Shown: positions 36,410 to 47,030 of the stretch, piece after piece | Layout: the number at the start of each line of letters is the position of its first letter | Position numbering within the stretch: position 1 is the stretch's first letter | NCBI GenBank assembly: GCA_022072455.1 | Contig: JAJVHY010000012.1 | Span: 233,236-297,235, forward strand | Direction of reading: 5' to 3' | Origin: Verrucomicrobiia bacterium | GTDB taxonomy: Bacteria; Verrucomicrobiota; Verrucomicrobiia; Palsa-1439 | Length of the DNA stretch: 64,000 bases | Made by a program: the position numbers and the translations under genes | The notes under the pieces: generated by a model | The model's input: only the letters and a program-made list of their open reading frames with translations | What the model was told of the DNA's origin: nothing | Database searches by the model: none

Positions 36410-37284
36410 ACCAGAGCGTCCCCAAAACCATTGGCATTGCCGGCAACCTCGGCAAACCGGAATCGCGTGACCGACTCTTCGAGCTTTTGAACCTGCTCAA
36501 TCACACCCAAGTCACCACGCTGCTCGAACAGGAAGCCGCCGCGCTCGCCGGGCGGCCCCACGACGCCCAACCGCTCCGCGCCATCGGCACCAAGGCCGAC
36601 CTCATCATCGTCCTCGGCGGCGACGGCACCATCCTGCGCGTCGCCCGGGAACTCGAAGGCGCGACGACCCCGTTGCTCGGCATCAACCTCGGCAGCCTCG
36701 GCTTTCTCACCAGCGTCCCCAGCCACGATTTGCCGGCCGCCGTCCAACAAGTGCTGACCGGCGCGTACGCGATCAGCCAGCGGTTCACCATCGAAACCAC
36801 CCTCCTGCGCAACGGCCACCGTCTCGAATCACACCGGGCACTCAATGATGCCGTGGTCTCGCGCGGCGCGTTCTCGCGGATCGTCCGGCTGCGGGTGTCC
36901 ATTGATGACGAGTGGTTGACAGAATACGTCTGCGACGGCATGATTTTCGCCACGCCCACTGGTTCAACGGCGTACTCGTTGAGCGCCGGTGGGCCGATTT
37001 TGTTACCGCAGGCGCGGGCGTGCATCTTGACGCCGATTTGCGCGCATGCGTTGAGCAATCGGCCGATCGTGGCCGGCGAAGATTCGGTGGTGCGCTGCCA
37101 GGTTGCCGGGGCGGCCGGCGAATTGCTCCTGACTATTGACGGCCAGGTCCAGATGCGGATGCAAGTCGGCGATGAAGTGGAAGTGCGCCGGTCGCCGCAC
37201 CCGGTCCGGTTGGCCACGCTGACCGGGCAAACATATTTCGACGTACTACGCCAAAAACTCAAGTGGAGCGGATCGAATGTCTAA
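36406..37284 (+). CDS. nadK: NAD kinase
   Basis: GGDGT motif and NDAVV. Confidence 0.9.
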   Translation: MNQSVPKTIGIAGNLGKPESRDRLFELLNLLNHTQVTTLLEQEAAALAGRPHDAQPLRAIGTKADLIIVLGGDGTILRVARELEGATTPLLGINLGSLGFLTSVPSHDLPAAVQQVLTGAYAISQRFTIETTLLRNGHRLESHRALNDAVVSRGAFSRIVRLRVSIDDEWLTEYVCDGMIFATPTGSTAYSLSAGGPILLPQARACILTPICAHALSNRPIVAGEDSVVRCQVAGAAGELLLTIDGQVQMRMQVGDEVEVRRSPHPVRLATLTGQTYFDVLRQKLKWSGSNV

Positions 37285-37744
37285 AATCAATAAAGTCGCC
37301 GCGTTACTGCGCGCCGACCGCATCAATCTCAACATCCAAAGCCAAAAGAAAAACGACGCCCTGCGCGAAGTCGCCCAGCAACTCGGCAAAACCGGCTGCG
37401 TGACCGACTTCGACGCATTTTTCGCGGAAATCCTCGAACGCGAACGCGTCAGCAACACCGCGCTCGGCCATGATGTTGCGATTCCCCATGCGCGCACCGA
37501 ACAATGCCGGGAAATCCTGATCGCGGTCGGCCGCAACACCAACGGCATCAGCTTTGACGCCAAAGACGGCCAGCCGGTGCGCTTGATTTTCATGATCGGC
37601 ACCCCGAAGCAGATGGTCACGGAATACCTCCGCGTCGTCGGCAACCTCGCCCGCCTCCTCCGGCAAGACACCCTCCGGCAAGCCCTTCTCGATGCCCCGG
37701 ACGTGGACACATTCATTCAACTCATCGACCAAGCCGAAGGCTGA
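37277..37744 (+). CDS. PTS EIIA type-2 domain protein (PtsN-like nitrogen regulatory protein)
   Basis: The HDVAIPHAR active-site His region is typical of EIIA-Ntr. Confidence 0.75.
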   Translation: MSKINKVAALLRADRINLNIQSQKKNDALREVAQQLGKTGCVTDFDAFFAEILERERVSNTALGHDVAIPHARTEQCREILIAVGRNTNGISFDAKDGQPVRLIFMIGTPKQMVTEYLRVVGNLARLLRQDTLRQALLDAPDVDTFIQLIDQAEG

Positions 37745-37753
37745 CCGCGACAC

Positions 37754-38386
37754 CTACGGAATCGGATTCACGCCGCCGTTACTCACCACCGCCGCCAACC
37801 GGTCCAGCGCCTCCGCCATCGTCTCGGGCGGACTGCCGGCCCAATGACCGGGATTGGCCGGCGAATACGCGCCGGTACTGAACGCTTGCCCATTGCCGGC
37901 TTTCAACGTCCCATCCGCCCACGTCGCCGCCACCGTCAACCCATCGCTGCCGATCAGCGTCCGCAACTGCGGATTGAGAAACCCCTGCCCCGCCCCGTCG
38001 TTGAGTTGCGCCCCCGGATCGTCCACGCCGGGAATGTAACCGCGAAACCCGACGATCGGCTGGCCGGCCGCATTGCAGAGGGCATGCTGGGCGGTGTTGA
38101 GGACCGGCGTGTTGGTCGCCGAATTGTTCACCGAGTTTTTTACTCCGACGTGCCCGGCATTGATGATGTCCTGTTCATCGCACAGCAACGCCCCGGTCAA
38201 GGGACTGGTCAACGCCGCATCAAGCCGCGCCTTGTCGCCGGGCACAAACTGCGCCGCTTCCGACCCGGTAAAGACCGGGTCAGTCTCCGGCACGTCGATC
38301 AAGTCCTTGAGGCCGGTGAATTGGTTGCGGAGTTCCGCCGACGTGAGCGGCGAATTGGGCGCCGGTAAGAGTGGGTCAAAGGGCAT
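37754..38386 (-). CDS. hypothetical protein, phage tail-fibre-like
   Basis: 210 aa, Gly/Asn/Thr-rich. The C-terminal ...NPGHWAGSPPETMAEALDRLAAVV resembles tail-fibre motifs. There are no enzymatic motifs. Confidence 0.55.
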   Translation of the reverse strand: MPFDPLLPAPNSPLTSAELRNQFTGLKDLIDVPETDPVFTGSEAAQFVPGDKARLDAALTSPLTGALLCDEQDIINAGHVGVKNSVNNSATNTPVLNTAQHALCNAAGQPIVGFRGYIPGVDDPGAQLNDGAGQGFLNPQLRTLIGSDGLTVAATWADGTLKAGNGQAFSTGAYSPANPGHWAGSPPETMAEALDRLAAVVSNGGVNPIP

Positions 38387-38480
38387 GGTTTCTTAGCCAC
38401 AGATTCACACGGATGAAACACAGTGGGAACTCCGGTATCTGTGCCCATCTGTATTCATCTGTGGCTACCTTTCACCGCTA

Positions 38481-39377
38481 TTAGCCTCCCACAATCACGG
38501 TGGCCTCGGCGCTCCATTGGCCCATGCGTTGGTCGCCGACCCGGTAAATCGCCCGGTACTGCCACTTCGTCGGCGTCGTCGGAATCGGGAACGTGTCCAC
38601 GTAGCCGGGCGTGGTATCAATGGCCAGCAACCGCCAGCCTTGTCCGTCGCCCCGGTCGACTTCGATTTCGCACTGGTCGAGGAACGCCGCCTTCCCGCGC
38701 CACGTCCAGCCGACCGTCACAGCCGCCGGCGCACGGGTGAGCTTGAGCACGGGACCGAACACATTCCAATCGGGCGCACCATCTTCGCTGCCGACCATCC
38801 CGAGGTCGCTGATGATCGCCTCCGTGCAGGTGGGTTTGTTGCGGATGTCCCGGACGAGCGTGAAGACGCGTGTCAACGCCCCGGCCTCGACCGGCGTCGC
38901 GCCCGCGGGACCGGTAAACGTGGGCAACGCCATCGCCCCCGGCAACGTCCCAAACTCCGCGTCCGCGACGGCATCGGTGCAGGACTTGGAGAAGGTGCGC
39001 ACTGCCGGCAACCACGTGCCGATTACGTAGATCAACCAGTCACAATCCGCCTGCGCGGCAGTGACCTGCCCCGCGGCCAACGTCAACGTCGTGGCGTAGA
39101 GCGGGAGTTTGTTGCGGAAATTTCCGAGCCAAAGGACTTGGTCGGCGTTGCCGGAAGGGAAGTAGGAGTTATGCGTCATGCGTTGTTTCCTTTTGGTTGG
39201 GGGTGGAGTGGGAGCGGCCGGCGGGACATAACCCGGGTCGCCCGGTTCGAGCAGATAACTGGGATCGCCCCAGTAGGCGTTTGGGTCGTCGAGATGCGTC
39301 CCGTCGTCCAAATGGATGGTTCTCATAAAGTGCGGCGGCGGTTCCCCCAACTCCGCGGGGAGCCGCGGCGAATCCAC
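38481..39377 (-). CDS. hypothetical protein with a C-terminal fibronectin-III-like domain
   Basis: 298-aa ORF with a GTG start at the edge of the repeat array. An alternative ATG is at 39326. The C-terminal ...TPTKWQYRAIYRVGDQRMGQWSAEATV is FN3-like. Confidence 0.5.
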   Translation of the reverse strand: MDSPRLPAELGEPPPHFMRTIHLDDGTHLDDPNAYWGDPSYLLEPGDPGYVPPAAPTPPPTKRKQRMTHNSYFPSGNADQVLWLGNFRNKLPLYATTLTLAAGQVTAAQADCDWLIYVIGTWLPAVRTFSKSCTDAVADAEFGTLPGAMALPTFTGPAGATPVEAGALTRVFTLVRDIRNKPTCTEAIISDLGMVGSEDGAPDWNVFGPVLKLTRAPAAVTVGWTWRGKAAFLDQCEIEVDRGDGQGWRLLAIDTTPGYVDTFPIPTTPTKWQYRAIYRVGDQRMGQWSAEATVIVGG

Positions 39378-39673
39378 GGGGAGCCCGGTTTAGAGCACGG
39401 GGAGCCCGGTTTGCGATTGGGGGCGCCGGGGTTGCGGCTGGGGGAACCCGGAAAATCGTGCGGGGAGCCCGGTCTGGAGCAAGGGGCGCCGGTTCGGCCG
39501 CTGGGGGAGCCCGGAAAACTGTTGGGGGAGCCGCCGCTGGCGTTAGGGGAGCCCGGAAAATGGTGCGGTGAGCACCCCCAACTCCAGACCCGGCTTCCCC
39601 AGCCGTTAGGTGAGCACCCCGCGCCGTAGCAGCGGCTCCCCCAACGATTAGGGGAGCCGGTTTTGGGGCGTTG
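39357..39673. repeat. tandem array of about sixteen 21-bp direct repeats with a near-palindromic core GGGGAGCCCGG
   Basis: Units are seen at 39357, 39378, 39399, 39420, 39440, 39462, 39483, 39503, 39525, 39546, then double-length units at 39567, 39609 and 39651. There are no spacers, so this is not CRISPR. Confidence 0.8.
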
Positions 39674-39910
39674 ACGGCTGCTTTCAGCGGATTTTGGGCT
39701 GTTTCAGGCACGCGCGCACCCTACCGGAAGGCAAAAATCGCTTCCTCTAAGATTCCCGCATTCGTCTCTAAGATTCCGCGGGCGGGCTCCGGCGCTTCGG
39801 ATGCCACTCCGGGCTTGTCCCGGTCACCCCGCGTTCCTGCGTCGTTCCGGTAAGAGCCACGCCGGACTGAAGTTGACCGGTCCGCCGAACTCTGGAGTGT
39901 AAAAGGCGTG

Positions 39911-40045
39911 TTGCCCAAATCGAAATTTGGGCGTTTTGGTGTAGCGGCGCTTCTGTGAAGCGCCAAGTTTCCTCGAGAATTGAACGACCCGCGCTTCGCA
40001 GAAGCGCGGCTACAACCGGCAAATGCATTTGGGCAAAACGCCCTC
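39911..40045. ncRNA. candidate structured RNA or REP cluster
   Basis: Contains the hairpins GCCCAAAT-CGA-ATTTGGGC, GGCGCTTC-TGT-GAAGCGCC and CGCGCTTC-GCA-GAAGCGCG, and the palindrome CAAATGCATTTG. An enclosing long-range pairing GGGCGTTTTGGTGTAGC...GCTACAA...CAAAACGCCC surrounds them. Confidence 0.3.
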
Positions 40046-40347
40046 AAGCGTTGACCCCGGTGAACTGGCGTTGACCGACCTCAATTCGCACGCAGTGCGA
40101 GCGGTCGTGATGCCGGGTCAGTGAAACTTTCTAGCTGAAGGCCGACAGCAGACCTGTCACGCCAAAGCCTCGGCGAAGGTGGAAAGCCGGTAGCTATTTC
40201 CCGCGCTTCCCCCTCACTGGGGCCGGTCAACAGGGGGGAAACTATCGTGAACTCACTTCGTCGCGAATTTGCAGACTCATGTGTCCCCTGTCTCAGCATA
40301 CGCGAAGCTTGAAGACTTCTTCTCGCTACAGGATACTCCCAACTTCA

Positions 40348-41328
40348 ATGGAGCAATTTGGTGCAGAGATAAGTAACCCAGTTTCGACGGGGGGCGCCGG
40401 AAACAATTTCGAGTGCCACGTCCAAACGCTGTTTGCGGTTTTGATGCTGGCTGGAGGCGTGTGCCCCTGCCTGCCGAACTGGCCGGCCAGCAGAATCCAA
40501 TTGCAAGGCAAACATGACGGTTACCAAACCGATGATGTCATCGTTTTCGCCCGCAACCCTGACAGCGGACAGGAAGCCAAATTACTGGGTCAGATACGGC
40601 TTTCGGTTGCCATCACGAAGAAAAACAAGAAGTTTGGAAAGGTCATCCGCCGTGCGCTGGAGGATTTTCGGAACCCGCAGCTATTCAACGAGAAAACTGA
40701 CGCAATTGCATTGATTACTGGCCCGTTAAGCGCGAGCGATAATGAAAGCGTTCGTTCCCTTCGTGACTTAGCACAGTACGCTCCGACCGCGAAGGATTTC
40801 CTTGGTAAATTCGAATTGGCTAAGTTCATGAGCGAAACGAAACGGCAGAAGTTCCGAGCTATCCGGGCCCAATTGAAGGCCGCGAATGATGGAGAAGATC
40901 TGCCCGAAGATGAGCTGTGGCGTTTCATGAAGAGTTTTCACTTTCTGAGCTACGATTTGGAATTCTCATCGGGAGCCACGCTGTCGCTGATCCAGTCGGT
41001 CCTCGCACAATTTGGGATTCGCGACGTTGCTGGCCTCTGGGGAAAAGTGAATGAAGAAGTTCGTATGTGCAACCAAAATGCCGGAACGCTGCTGTGGGAT
41101 AATGTCTCCGAAGATCTCCGTCAAACCTTCTCGAAGCGCATTGTGTCGACGCCGGCGCGAGACGAACGTACTCCTCCCGCAGAACAGGATTCGCAGAAGC
41201 AAGTGGTCGAACGTGTACAAGGTGTGCAGGCTGACGCAATGGTGATCGCTGCGCTTGCCGGTGGATTTAACGATAAGAAGAAGGCAGATCTCGAAAGCCT
41301 CAACAAGCTGGTGGGTGGCGATGATTAA
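40348..41328 (+). CDS. hypothetical protein (gene A of the low-GC cassette), possible PD-(D/E)xK-like nuclease N-terminal domain
   Basis: 326 aa at GC ~50%. The N-terminal spacing E(FECHVQ)...D(TDDVIVF)...EAK(QEAKLLGQI) fits the nuclease core pattern. Its stop overlaps the gene B start by 8 nt (ATGATTAA). Confidence 0.55.
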   Translation: MEQFGAEISNPVSTGGAGNNFECHVQTLFAVLMLAGGVCPCLPNWPASRIQLQGKHDGYQTDDVIVFARNPDSGQEAKLLGQIRLSVAITKKNKKFGKVIRRALEDFRNPQLFNEKTDAIALITGPLSASDNESVRSLRDLAQYAPTAKDFLGKFELAKFMSETKRQKFRAIRAQLKAANDGEDLPEDELWRFMKSFHFLSYDLEFSSGATLSLIQSVLAQFGIRDVAGLWGKVNEEVRMCNQNAGTLLWDNVSEDLRQTFSKRIVSTPARDERTPPAEQDSQKQVVERVQGVQADAMVIAALAGGFNDKKKADLESLNKLVGGDD

Positions 41329-43903
41329 GAACCGTGAAGAACTGATTTCGGCCTTGCAGGATGTCTCACTGTTACCGAACTCTCCGCTTAAGCAAAAGGA
41401 CGGAAGATGGCGGGTCGCTGAACGCGTTGAGACGTGGAAAGCTATCGGCCCCAAAATATTTGATGAGCATTTAGATCGACTCAAAAAAGTCGCAGTCGAT
41501 GTACTGCGGGAACGTGATCCTCAGTTCGAATTGAAACCCGAGCAGCGGTACGCAGCAAGCATGCACGGGAAGGTGTTGGAGCATTCGCAGACGCTTAGGA
41601 AGGGATTAGCTGAAACATTAGCTCTAATGGGCAGTCTTCCCCAAGTCTTAACGTCCTGCACACACACCAAACCCGAAAACACAGCTGCTCTAGCGGTTCG
41701 AGAGATACTGCAAGATGCAGATTGGGTACTGTGGGCGAGTCTTAATCCCCAGTTGCCGTTGCTTGCAGAAGCCGCACCGGACGAATTTCTTCATCAGGTT
41801 CAAAAGGCCTTAATCAAGCATCCTTCGCCATTTCTGGAAGTGTTTTCGCAAGAAAGAAACGGAATTGCCGGCAGGAACTACCTGACTGGTCTTCTATGGG
41901 CTCTTGAGACGCTCGCTTGGAATCCAAGCCTTCTAACACAAGCTATCGTTATCCTAGGCGATCTGGCTGCAATCGACCCAGGAGGAAATTGGGCAAACCG
42001 TCCGTTCAATTCAATCGTAGACGTACTCTTACCATGGCATCCACAAACCTGTGCCGACATCTCGAAGCGAAAAGCTGCTGTTGTCGCGCTATTGCGCGAT
42101 CATCCCAAGATTGGATGGAAGCTGCTACTCAGCTTATTGCCAAAGGGTCATGAAACCACTTCTGGCACACAGAAGCCTTCATTCAGAAGTTTTATTCCTA
42201 CTGAATGGTCGGAGAAAGTTACAAACCTTGAATACTGGGACCAAGTTAAAGGCTATGCAGAACTGATAGCGAAATTAGTTTTGGAAGATCGATCTAAGCT
42301 GACTGAAGTTGTGGAACATTTTCCCAATTTACCAGAGCCGTCCCGTTCTAAGATCCTTGAGCACTTACGCTCGAAAAAGATTGCCGATTTACCGGAGTCT
42401 GAACGTTTGCCTGTATGGGAAGCCTTGATGGATCTTGCCGCCAAGCATCGAAATTTTGCCGAGTCGGACTGGGCTCTTCCGAAAGAGTATGTCATACAGT
42501 TAGAAGAAATAGCGGCGACATTGTCTCCAGCCGATCGCACGCTGCTATATCGGCGCCTCTTCAGTAGCCGTGATTTCGAATTGTATGAAAAGCTTGGCGA
42601 CTATGCTGAGCAGGAAAGACAACTAGACGAACGTCGCCGTCAAGCAATCGGAGAAATTCTGGAACAAGGCGCTCTAAATGGAATTCTTCGCTTTGTTCGT
42701 CAAGTCCAGTCTCCCGAAAAAGTCGGAAGTGCTCTTGCGTTCGTTGACTTCGACGAAGTCGGTGAGGGGTTGATTCCGAATTATCTTGAAACGAAAGACC
42801 AATCTCTTGGCCCGTTTATGCGGTCTTTTGTTTGGACGCGCTTTTACGTTAAGAAATCACCCTGGCTTGATAGCTTACCTGTGCAGAATTGGTCTCATGA
42901 GCAAAAGCTTCACTTGTTGCTTTTCTTGCCATTCGTCCCTGAAGTTTGGGACAGAGCACGACAGCTTATCGAGGACGTGTCGCTCTACTGGAGAAATGCC
43001 AATGTCCGTCCTTACGGACTTAAAGAACATGCGAAAACAGCTGTTGAGTGTCTTCTCGACAATGGTCGTCCGCTCGCCGCGATATCCTGCCTCTATGTGA
43101 TGATCAACGAGGGAATTCCGTTTTCCGCGAATCTTGCAATAGCTGCGCTGAAGCAAGCTACAAGTACGAAGCCCAAGGAAGATAAATTCGACACCCATCA
43201 GGTGCTTGACGTAATCAAATGGCTGCAGGCTAATCCAGATGTCGAGGAAGTGTTGCTTGCAGCAGTGGAATGGAGCTACCTATCTCTTTTGAGAGAGCAT
43301 TCAGGCGTAACGCCTAAGACGCTAGAGCGCCACCTAACTCGAGATCCAAAGTTTTTCTGTGAAGTAATTGGATACGCTTTTCGTTCCGAAAAAGAACGGA
43401 ATACGGACCGGCAGGCGACGGAAAAGGAGAGAAACATTGCACAAGGTGCTTATCGATTGCTTCATGAATGGAAGAGCATACCAGGAACGAAACCAGACGG
43501 CTCTTTTGATGAAAAGCTATTTGACCAATGGCTCCAAGAGGTAAGGAGAATAACAAGTAAATCGGGACATCTCGGAATCGCGTTGGATCAAATAGGCAAA
43601 GTACTCGCCCACGCACCGCCGAGCCCTGATGGTCTTTGGATACATAGCGCGGTTGCTGAAGTCTTGAACGCAAGAGATGCCGAAGAAATGCGCGCAGGGT
43701 TCTCTTGTGAGCGCGTTAATATGCGTGGTGTCCACTGGGACACCCAAGGCAAGCAGGAACGAGAGATTGCGGACGACTACAATCGAAAGGCAGATGCGCT
43801 AGATGAAAAGGGGTTTGCCCGAATTGCTGCTGCCGTTCGCGGAATTGCCAAGAGTTTTGAGCGGGAAGCGGAACTGGACATTCGCCGCACAATTGAAGAG
43901 TAA
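41321..43903 (+). CDS. hypothetical large alpha-helical protein (gene B of the low-GC cassette)
   Basis: 860 aa at GC ~46-50%, Trp/Leu-rich and helical. It has no Walker A, DExH or other NTPase motif. Confidence 0.55.
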   Translation: MIKNREELISALQDVSLLPNSPLKQKDGRWRVAERVETWKAIGPKIFDEHLDRLKKVAVDVLRERDPQFELKPEQRYAASMHGKVLEHSQTLRKGLAETLALMGSLPQVLTSCTHTKPENTAALAVREILQDADWVLWASLNPQLPLLAEAAPDEFLHQVQKALIKHPSPFLEVFSQERNGIAGRNYLTGLLWALETLAWNPSLLTQAIVILGDLAAIDPGGNWANRPFNSIVDVLLPWHPQTCADISKRKAAVVALLRDHPKIGWKLLLSLLPKGHETTSGTQKPSFRSFIPTEWSEKVTNLEYWDQVKGYAELIAKLVLEDRSKLTEVVEHFPNLPEPSRSKILEHLRSKKIADLPESERLPVWEALMDLAAKHRNFAESDWALPKEYVIQLEEIAATLSPADRTLLYRRLFSSRDFELYEKLGDYAEQERQLDERRRQAIGEILEQGALNGILRFVRQVQSPEKVGSALAFVDFDEVGEGLIPNYLETKDQSLGPFMRSFVWTRFYVKKSPWLDSLPVQNWSHEQKLHLLLFLPFVPEVWDRARQLIEDVSLYWRNANVRPYGLKEHAKTAVECLLDNGRPLAAISCLYVMINEGIPFSANLAIAALKQATSTKPKEDKFDTHQVLDVIKWLQANPDVEEVLLAAVEWSYLSLLREHSGVTPKTLERHLTRDPKFFCEVIGYAFRSEKERNTDRQATEKERNIAQGAYRLLHEWKSIPGTKPDGSFDEKLFDQWLQEVRRITSKSGHLGIALDQIGKVLAHAPPSPDGLWIHSAVAEVLNARDAEEMRAGFSCERVNMRGVHWDTQGKQEREIADDYNRKADALDEKGFARIAAAVRGIAKSFEREAELDIRRTIEE

Positions 43904-44367
43904 ACGAACACGCGTTAATTCGAAAATCCGAACCCAGGTCAACTCCCCACCTCCCACACGATAACTCCTTGATGATCTCCGGGCGAAGCTGTCTGCTGTC
44001 AGCGGTCAGCTATCAGCTGTCGGTGGTCAGCGGTCAGCATTCGGCGGTTGACGGGGTTCGTGGGGCAACAACTCACAACTATTGCATCGAGTTTAAGAAG
44101 CTCGACGTGAATTAAGGCCGGTTGGTTTGGTTCAAGACGCACAGCGAACTCGCCCGCCATGCCTAAGGCCCCCAGAAAACCGACCACCCGGCACTGCGGC
44201 CTGTTCGATTTTGACTGAAAACGGTCAAAAATGTCAGCGGCCGACACAATTGTACTTCTTTCTTGCCGTAATAGCTCGGAATCTTCCGCGGCACATTGAT
44301 TGCTGAAAATGGGCCGCGCGGCTGCAATGGCCGCCTCTGAAAACTCGGTAACTCGAAAGGATTCATT

Positions 44368-45968: not shown

Positions 45969-46595
45969 TTAACGCGGCTTCCCGGAGCGGCAGCTTGCGC
46001 CACTGTTGCGGGCGCGTTTCTTTTTCCCAGACCCATTCCGCCCGGCGCCATTCTGGCCGGGCTTCTTCTGGCGCGGCCACTTTCGCCGCGCAGCCCGGCG
46101 TCGGTACTCCGTCGGCGTCAGGCGGGTGAGGCGTTTGAACCAGAAGTAAAAGTCCGGCCACGACTGGAAACCGGCTTCGTCGGCCACGGTGCTGACTTTC
46201 TTATTGAAGTCGAGCAGGAGATCCTTCGCGCGTTCGATCCGGCGGGTCGCGACATAGCGCGAGAACCGATAGCCGGTGGTTTTCTTGAGCTGACCGGAAA
46301 ACGGGCCGGGCGAGAGCCCGGCGTGCCGGGTCACTTGTTCGAGCGTCAGCCGGTCGGTGAGGTGGGCTTCGATGAAGGCGAGGGCGTGCTGGAAGGCGGA
46401 CGGCTCGTAGCGGTAGGCTTCCCGGCGGTGGTACCGGCTGAGTTCGCCATGCCGGTCCGCCAGCGCCAGACACCGGGCGCGATGCGCCGCGAGCGCGGCG
46501 GGGGACCGCGGCGGGGACACCACACCGCCCTCCCGGCCCGCCCGGGAAGAGTGCTCGTGCTCGCGACCTCGCCTGACCGTGGTTTCCATCCGCAC
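45969..46595 (-). CDS. AraC-family HTH transcriptional regulator (HTH domain only)
   Basis: LTLEQVTRHAGLSPGPFSGQLKKTTGYRFSRYVATRRIERAKDLL is an AraC-type double HTH. Confidence 0.6.
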   Translation of the reverse strand: MRMETTVRRGREHEHSSRAGREGGVVSPPRSPAALAAHRARCLALADRHGELSRYHRREAYRYEPSAFQHALAFIEAHLTDRLTLEQVTRHAGLSPGPFSGQLKKTTGYRFSRYVATRRIERAKDLLLDFNKKVSTVADEAGFQSWPDFYFWFKRLTRLTPTEYRRRAARRKWPRQKKPGQNGAGRNGSGKKKRARNSGASCRSGKPR

Positions 46596-46699
46596 CGCAC
46601 CGGCAACTGCCGAACAGAAACCTCACCGTCAGCACCACCCACCTACCGGGCGCATTTCTTACCGAAGTGATTGGGGATTGCCAAGCTGGTTTGCGGAAG

Positions 46700-47030
46700 A
46701 CAGGAGTCAGGAGGCAGTAGGCAAAAGACAGTAGGCAGAAGTCAGAAGTCAGAAGTCAGGAGTCGTGAACATCCGCCTGCCCTGAATGCGTTCGGGGTGA
46801 ATGGCTACTCCCACTTTTCGTCTTTCGTGTCATTTCGTGCATTCCGTGGTTAACCGGAGCAGCGGGGGCAGTGGGCAGAAGACAGTGGGCAGAAGTCAGG
46901 AGGCAGTATTCGTGAATCCCACCGGCTCATCTGCCGGTCGCGGCGCAGAGGCCGCTCCCACTTTTCGTCTTTCGTGTCATTTCGTGTATTCCCGCCGTCG
47001 CCTGGCCTTTGGCGTGCATTCCGTGGTTCT
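46700..47030. repeat. tandemly duplicated ~160-bp element upstream of cimA/leuA
   Basis: Each copy has a CAGNAGN heptamer tract (x9 at 46701-46763; x6 at 46869-46910). Each also has the conserved block CTCCCACTTTTCGTCTTTCGTGTCATTTCGTG(C/T)ATTCC(GTGGTT) (46808-46851; 46955-46992, with the tail at 47014-47028). Confidence 0.75.

Follow-up and report, generated by a model that had tools for sequence, protein, structure and literature searches.

A conserved 21-bp repeat array upstream of a large Verrucomicrobiota gene family

Why does a chromosomal gene of a Verrucomicrobiia bacterium sit behind some 300 bp of repeats set exactly 21 bp apart? The question arises from a 64,000-nucleotide stretch of the Palsa-1439 genome assembly GCA_022072455.1 (contig JAJVHY010000012.1, forward-strand positions 233,236 to 297,235), which we call the window and number from its first letter. 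A sequence-only reading of the window, made without database searches, had pointed to the repeats beside a fibronectin type III (FN3)-like gene. It had offered three explanations: an iteron-like or cis-regulatory array of binding sites, a replication or partition site of a defunct element, and a slippage-prone coding extension. Here we report that the array exemplifies an upstream element conserved in a large gene family of Verrucomicrobiota, and that it is a non-coding cis element belonging to the gene downstream of it. The element recurs throughout the family, is specific to it and is constrained in its spacing. As to mechanism, we infer either an operator-like array on DNA or a repeat-bearing leader RNA. 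We found no description of the element in Rfam, Pfam or the searchable full-text literature, and it is apparently new to description.

In the window, the array comprises 15 slots in one 21-bp register. Cutting the sequence in 21-nt steps from 39357 yields slots covering 39357–39671: ten direct GGGGAGCCCGG units, two GGTGAGCACCC variants, two inverted units and one further direct unit. The array is therefore real where it had first been placed (39357–39673), but it holds 15 in-phase slots, 11 of them direct, rather than the sixteen direct repeats originally counted. Slots 1–10 (39357–39566, no strand assigned) are consecutive direct units, each made of an 11-bp core and a 10-bp variable part. 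The core, GGGGAGCCCGG on the plus strand and CCGGGCTCCCC in the orientation of the gene, carries 0–3 mismatches in these ten units and is perfect in five. The five further slots (39567–39671, likewise without strand) keep the 21-bp phase. Slots 11 and 13 (39567 and 39609) open with GGTGAGCACCC; slots 12 and 14 (39588 and 39630) are reverse-complement units, recovered also as the inverted repeats I1, I2, I4 and I5; and slot 15 (39651) is a direct unit again. Slots 11–15 pair with the direct units as long imperfect inverted repeats.

The periodicity stands far above its surroundings. Identity at a lag of 21 reaches 0.58 over 39357–39566 against a window background of 0.30 ± 0.04 (z = 6.4), with a highest value elsewhere of 0.46, and Tandem Repeats Finder called periods of 21 and 63 at 39398–39532. 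The sequence-only reading had recommended a genome search for further arrays of the core; within the window there are none: this is the sole lag-21 array in the 64 kb, and the core occurs elsewhere at the chance rate (39 matches in the window with at most two mismatches, the array itself counted, against 36.8 expected). Two copies of CTCTAAGATTCC lie 21 bp apart at 39736–39777 (no strand assigned), 63 bp beyond the main array and still in its register; the same phase would arise by accident 1 time in 21, and we tentatively assign the pair to the element. The pattern GGGGAGCCCGG-N10-GGGGAGCCCGG had no match among viral contigs and 39 in metagenomes, all of them short near-perfect repeats of 3–7 units. 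We rejected the metagenome matches as relatives; they have no family gene nearby and appear to sit in coding sequence.

The array adjoins a gene whose true start lies just beyond the last repeat. The minus-strand open reading frame (ORF) of 298 amino acids (aa) at 38481–39377 has at least 526 homologues, which cover 94% of it; nearly all are about 280 aa long and align from an internal ATG at 39326. The GTG at 39377 falls within the first repeat unit and does not serve as the start codon. The gene thus runs from ATG 39326 to 38481 on the minus strand and encodes a 281-aa protein beginning MRTIHLDD, and the array stops 28–30 bp before the start codon. The earlier statement that the repeats abut the start of the gene is accordingly right about adjacency and wrong about the start. 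The gap segment (39327–39356, minus strand) carries an inverted partial unit, GGTTCCCCCAAC, at 39339–39350. It contains no Shine-Dalgarno-like sequence at the usual distance and is too short for a sigma-70 promoter. No terminator-like site was found at 39327–39357 or on the minus strand of the array.

The same arrangement recurs across the family. Our comparative set comprised 80 loci from species-representative Verrucomicrobiota genomes, 66 of them with enough upstream DNA. In about 60 of these 66, lags of 21, 42 and 63 were the strongest autocorrelation lags within 400 bp upstream of the start codon, and the array persisted down to 38% protein identity. It is also specific to the family: of 83 lag-21 arrays detected across 450 kb of these loci, 79 sit immediately upstream of a family gene, and both of the two exceptions examined, out of four, fall within translated repeats. 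Arrays have a median length of 288 bp (interquartile range 234–343 bp), a distal edge near −343 and a median gap to the ATG of 41 bp; gaps run from 0 to 90 bp, and a quarter are no longer than 2.5 bp. We counted 245 chromosomal relatives in Verrucomicrobiota genomes, in varied contexts and several per genome, the arrangement always including the FN3 gene. The upstream neighbours are unrelated housekeeping genes, as Pfam searches of 105 upstream-neighbour ORFs showed, so the array travels with the gene downstream of it.

What the family conserves is geometry, not sequence. Units are specific to the locus (examples are GGTGGCGCAACACC, GGAGnCTCACCCC, TTCCCGGACGTCCGGGAA, GTGGGAATCCATTCCCAC and GGCGTGCGCGCC). 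Related units occur only between loci with at least about 80% protein identity, where 16–20 of 21 positions are alike; below this, similarity drops to the level of shuffled sequence, and co-resident paralogues at 72–74% identity have unrelated units. Judged by these comparisons, units are passed on together with the gene, yet their sequence is replaced over time. Spacing behaves differently. A single 21-bp phase runs from end to end in 56 of 60 arrays, 555 of 565 confident blocks are in phase, and the phase shifts in only four arrays, mostly by 1 bp. Units within one array meanwhile differ at 30–55% of positions (45–75% alike). Substitutions thus accumulate while indels are nearly absent, which is strong evidence for selection on the exact spacing; the absence of 3-bp shifts argues against a reading-frame constraint.

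Copy number is equally steady. The sequence-only reading had proposed comparing strains for variable-number tandem repeat behaviour, and in three sets of near-identical strains, taken from different samples and with identical family proteins, the homologous arrays proved equal in length and free of indels. Those of L003, L004 and L005 are identical, as are those of L125–L127, and L128 and L129 differ by three substitutions over 527 bp. The 21-bp arrays therefore do not behave like hypervariable tandem repeats.

The gene downstream of the array encodes a protein with a helical and an FN3 domain. An AlphaFold model (mean predicted local distance difference test score 82) shows a conserved N-terminal peptide, a disordered linker, a helical domain at residues 60–175 and a C-terminal beta-sandwich. 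Foldseek assigns the beta-sandwich to FN3, which bears out the original description of the gene as FN3-like. At the sequence level the order is an N-terminal peptide, DDPN..WG.PSY.LEPGDPGY, a Lys-rich disordered linker, an invariant Met50, the helical domain and the FN3 domain. The rest of the model matched no solved or viral structure in Foldseek searches of the PDB and viral structures or in a PDB sequence-profile search, and the protein has no match in Pfam, PHROG, PADLOC or NCBIfam. An exhaustive profile search returned 2331 cluster representatives of the family, many of about 230 aa and beginning at the invariant Met50; the 50-residue N-terminal peptide is therefore a subfamily extension or an optional part. 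The named relatives are all from Verrucomicrobiota, with several paralogues per genome. Met50 directly follows the Lys-rich linker, a large share of the family (P0123–P0270, about 230 aa) begins exactly there, and an internal start at this residue is possible.

How might such an array work? We tentatively favour a DNA-level array of predicted protein-binding sites, operator-like or iteron-like and two helical turns apart, that would control the downstream gene. Because 21 bp corresponds to two turns of B-DNA at 10.5 bp per turn, all sites would face one side of the helix over 300 bp. Each site would consist of a conserved core of about 11–14 bp, often dyad-symmetric, followed by a variable spacer. 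A protein, probably a dimer, would bind cooperatively along the roughly 300 bp and set transcription of the downstream gene, as in operator, iteron and centromere-type arrays; were the binder the gene's own product, the result would be autoregulation. The binding-site explanation in the sequence-only reading fits the family data: spacing is exactly 21 bp over about 60 loci, the conservation profile of the unit consists of one conserved block and one variable block, and dyad symmetry is in excess. Unit consensus sequences average 6.8 symmetric pairs of 10 against 5.6 in shuffles, and 17 of 47 reach at least 8 against about 3% of shuffles. As units differ between paralogues within one genome and no other neighbour is conserved, the FN3-gene product is the most economical candidate for the binder. 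One other candidate, a cis-encoded regulator, was considered and rejected: XRE-type helix-turn-helix genes lie just upstream of the array at two loci only (L002/L007 and L132–L135), and a phmmer search of the other loci returned nothing related to these genes.

Several observations weigh against a DNA-level array of binding sites. We found no binding protein, recognised no DNA-binding domain in the 281-aa protein, and saw nothing in its predicted fold that shows nucleic-acid binding. The enrichment of dyad symmetry is moderate, and the window's own unit shows little of it. At roughly one locus in four the array extends to the ATG, and in the window it lies 28–30 bp from it; this puts the promoter within the array or upstream of it and makes transcription of at least a portion of the array probable. 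The composition of the sense strand tells the same way: its excess of C over G is nearly as strong in the array (−0.137) as in the coding region (−0.147), compared with −0.03 far upstream, and it depends on orientation. Finally, no sigma-70-like promoter was seen in or near the window array, and promoter-like sites in the family loci are not enriched by position or strand.

These features bring in a second explanation, in which the array would be a 5′ mRNA leader of about 300–350 nt whose tandem 21-nt units, often short hairpins, bind a protein at fixed spacing or stabilise or insulate the message. The binder could be the gene's own product, in the way that the repeat RNA of type III toxin–antitoxin systems binds its toxin. 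We regard a leader RNA as the main rival, somewhat less likely than a DNA-level array. Arrays abut the ATG in many loci (median gap as above), and a promoter would not fit between array and gene; the C-over-G skew of the coding strand is seen in the array at 53 of 58 loci; and the sense strand has fewer stop codons than the antisense strand. Unit orientation is mostly kept between related loci (12 against 5), and the combination of a conserved repeat length with diverging, locus-specific sequence beside a conserved protein gene is a ToxI/ToxN-type pattern. The DNA directly beyond the distal end of the array, a possible place for a promoter, holds a conserved motif, TA(A/G)nGCGG, to which a third of the loci add a perfect 7–8-bp microsatellite. 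Selection on RNA pairing, however, gave no sign of itself. Arm mismatches are symmetric (309 G:T against 328 A:C) and show no wobble asymmetry, and compensatory double changes within arrays show no excess (127 against 119 ± 9 expected). The window sequence gives weak folding z-scores (−1.5 for the sense strand, −1.9 for the antisense), and no Rfam match at E ≤ 1 was found on either strand of 37000–41000. In 35 of 47 loci the antisense strand gives the better fold, although the C-rich sense strand accounts for this and confounds whole-array strand comparison. There is, further, no terminator between array and gene; the protein has no match to ToxN, AbiQ or any other family of defence proteins; and the exact 21-nt spacing has no obvious RNA rationale, yet equals two turns of DNA.

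Three other explanations fare worse. The array could be a functionless minisatellite that arose once beside the ancestral gene, is regenerated by slippage or unequal exchange and travels with the gene. Such an origin would account for a unit consensus that changes at a roughly neutral rate (4 of 21 positions have changed where the proteins are 90% identical), for the homogenisation of units within an array by concerted evolution, which recombination alone produces in tandem repeats, and for our finding neither a binder nor RNA structure. We nevertheless consider it improbable. The array persists across nearly all loci and into distant homologues, its length and position are consistent, indels are nearly absent despite the divergence between units, and such arrays are missing from the remainder of the 450 kb examined; active slippage would also do the opposite of keeping copy number stable in near-identical strains. 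Less probable still is that the array is the replication origin or the partition site of a mobile element, whether integrated or defunct. Plasmid iterons and parC-type centromeres do offer a parallel, in direct repeats that have a locus-specific core and a spacing of about two helical turns, and a low-GC island (40279–43903) adjoins the array. But we found no genes for Rep, ParA, ParM, ParB, ParR or TubZR, no DnaA box (TTATCCACA, at most one mismatch) in 38900–40400 and no AT-rich region, AT content peaking at 57% in any 40-bp window; the other flank is housekeeping (NAD kinase and phosphotransferase system EIIA), and the arrangement occurs at 245 chromosomal places as a multi-copy family, all of which tells against this part of the sequence-only reading. 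Least credible of all is translation of the array, whether as an N-terminal extension of heptad repeats entered by frameshift or slippage or as an upstream ORF of its own. The idea has an arithmetic basis, as 21 is 3 × 7, and long ORFs do traverse the array on both strands: the 180-aa minus-strand ORF noted at the outset (39169–39711) exists, as does a 370-aa plus-strand ORF. Some called homologues (P0048 and P0094) carry heptad-repeat extensions, and the +1 and +2 sense frames are stop-free in 29 and 24 of 47 loci. Yet of the three sense frames, the one that runs into the gene is the least open: it is free of stops over 330 nt in 12 of 47 loci, its median stop lies about 100 nt upstream, and in the window a stop occurs in this frame 51 nt upstream. 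No sense frame is universally open. The heptads of the over-called homologues are unrelated to one another and to the window (YGELRLG and RPxxxxV against xxxxRAP). Period-3 signal in unit conservation reaches p < 0.05 in 1 of 42 loci, the dominant harmonic being one conserved block per unit, and that block is contiguous. Slippage by 21 bp, moreover, cannot shift the frame. With homologues beginning at the ATG, the frame usually closed and no period of three, the proposed slippage- or frameshift-prone extension finds no place.

Comparison with known repeat systems points to partial likenesses with several of them. Iterons of theta-replicating plasmids and phages are alike in spacing: those of P1 RepA are 19 bp long and spaced about 21 bp apart, and those of R6K, RK2, F and pSC101 are spaced 21–22 bp apart. 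Like the array, iterons are direct repeats about two turns apart with a core and a variable spacer, and their locus-specific sequence is inherited with, and lies directly beside, an adjacent gene. Unlike them, the array has about 15 units rather than the usual 3–9, has no Rep-type initiator, DnaA box or AT-rich unwinding element, is chromosomal with several copies per genome in housekeeping contexts, and is partnered by a helical and FN3 protein. Of the hallmarks of a Rep–iteron system, then, the repeat spacing is present, and the initiator, the DnaA box or AT-rich element and the replicon location are absent.

Partition and toxin–antitoxin loci share the position of the repeats. Centromere or operator arrays of type II and related partition systems include the parC of R1 (10 repeats of 11 bp), the parC of pSK41 (4 of 20 bp) and tubC; the omega repressor has heptad operators. 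In parC, tubC and the omega operators, tandem repeats lie directly upstream of the genes they control, as the array does upstream of the gene it would control, and phased sites let a small dimeric binder coat the DNA cooperatively, a further likeness to the arrangement we favour. Unit length and number differ, however, and the window locus has no plasmid context. Nor did we detect a ParM, ParA or TubZ NTPase or a ribbon-helix-helix or winged-helix adaptor; the two downstream genes encode neither component, and no neighbour is conserved across loci. Type III toxin–antitoxin systems (ToxIN, CptIN, TenpIN, AbiQ/antiQ) likewise place direct repeats immediately 5′ of a protein gene and conserve repeat length across the family with locus-specific sequence. 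Their repeats are 34–48 nt long in 2–6 near-identical copies, compared with 21 nt in about 15 often degenerate units in the array. They also have a terminator between repeats and gene and a ToxN, AbiQ, CptN or TenpN endoribonuclease, neither of which occurs at the array locus, where the RNA-structure signal is missing as well. The array thus lacks the defining features of the Rep–iteron, partition and type III toxin–antitoxin families.

Many relatives carry a second, shorter repeat beside the array. In 21 of 66 loci (L013, L018, L021, L036, L060, L008, L071, L079, L026, L054 and L069 among them) the 21-bp array has, immediately on its distal side, a perfect 7- or 8-bp microsatellite of 4–17 copies, at about −620 to −190 relative to the ATG of the family gene; none occurs in 130 kb of downstream control DNA. 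These microsatellites are intergenic, share the unit GCGCAAC(C/A) in several loci and are usually followed by the short motif TA(A/G)nGCGG. They resemble contingency loci and the short tandemly repeated repetitive (STRR) heptamers of cyanobacteria, which are also perfect short-period intergenic repeats by the 5′ region of a gene. The window locus has no distal 7–8-bp microsatellite and differs from both systems in this respect, and its 21-bp array is imperfect and belongs to a type that shows no copy-number change in near-identical strains. A different motif, the small conserved palindrome AAAAC-N4-7-GTTTT, lies between array and ATG in 12 of 66 loci, all in one subclade, and is absent from the window. 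It was located in the last 120 nt before the ATG (in L011, L020, L022, L023, L024, L028, L031, L032, L036 and L038), often with ATTTAC about 21 bp upstream, and any other 120-nt zone holds about one.

Genes downstream of the family are poorly conserved. In the window, the family gene is followed by a 210-aa gene on the same strand (37754–38386, minus), a weakly conserved partner without Pfam, PHROG, PADLOC or NCBIfam matches. It has about 50 aa in common with the gene downstream of a family member in L006, and a small related gene trails the family gene in about 8 of 80 loci. We found no conserved operon partner beyond this weakly similar small gene and rejected the idea of one. The N- and C-terminal motifs of the 210-aa protein are reminiscent of phage tail-fibre proteins, a resemblance that no database match supports. 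At other loci the downstream gene encodes a 2382-aa SpvB/TcdB/RHS toxin-like protein (L003, 8998–16146) or a large cadherin/Big_9 repeat protein (L125, 2420 onward). The association is inconsistent, and such neighbours give no more than hints of a surface or secreted role for the family.

The surroundings of the window array hold further repeats. About 230 bp distal to the array, at 39905–40043, lies a nested 140-bp inverted repeat, GGCGTGTTGCCCAAAT/ATTTGGGCAAAACGCC around TGTAGCGGCGCTTCTGTGAAGCGC/GCGCTTCGCAGAAGCGCGGCTACA; it has no Rfam match, and its first hairpin scores as terminator-like on the plus strand. The low-GC island mentioned above (GC 0.47–0.54 against 0.60) contains two plus-strand ORFs of 349 and 882 aa without Pfam matches. 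The longer of them matches the C-terminal two thirds of the 1258-position profile phrog_18693 (E = 2e-112), and the island was probably acquired horizontally. An imperfect heptamer array, GCNGTCA in about nine copies, occupies 43987–44048, directly after the stop of the 882-aa gene. Two more, GNAGNCA in about 10 and 6 copies (46690–46765 and 46866–46906), sit between a divergent AraC-type gene (45969–46595, minus strand) and the next plus-strand gene; a shared block of about 40 bp, CTCCCACTTTTCGTCTTTCGTGTCATTTCGTG (46810–46848 and 46960–46992), comes after each of them. The heptamer GGGCAGT, for its part, also recurs in L034, as a perfect microsatellite on the upstream side of the 21-bp array.

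The arrays have practical consequences for genome data. They give rise to long spurious ORFs on either strand and lead public gene predictions to over-call N termini; we saw such cases at 707–1321 of L005, at 38517–39629 and 39169–39711 of the window, and in P0048 and P0094. Many contigs that carry the gene end at its start or within a few hundred bp of it, consistent with arrays breaking assemblies at these points.

The element gives a large Verrucomicrobiota family, with its 2331 cluster representatives, a big upstream region conserved only in geometry. It is a natural case of selection acting on spacing and not on sequence, with units exactly 21 bp apart, about 15 of them, and indels nearly absent. 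It also offers a handle on regulation or nucleoprotein assembly in a phylum with little known regulatory biology. If the adjacent protein is the binder, this would be the first functional clue to an uncharacterised combination of folds, and the paralogues would supply naturally orthogonal pairs of protein and repeat. A more speculative version, which we think rather unlikely, is a self-contained pair of protein and nucleic acid: the FN3 protein or an oligomer of it would sit on its own repeat lattice, in DNA or in the mRNA leader, with one subunit per 21 nt, co-evolution of repeat and protein would keep paralogues orthogonal, and the microsatellite would serve as a switch. If true, such a pair would constitute a new class of autoregulatory or self-recognising module, similar in logic to Rep–iteron, ParB–parS and ToxI–ToxN, and unrelated to all of them.

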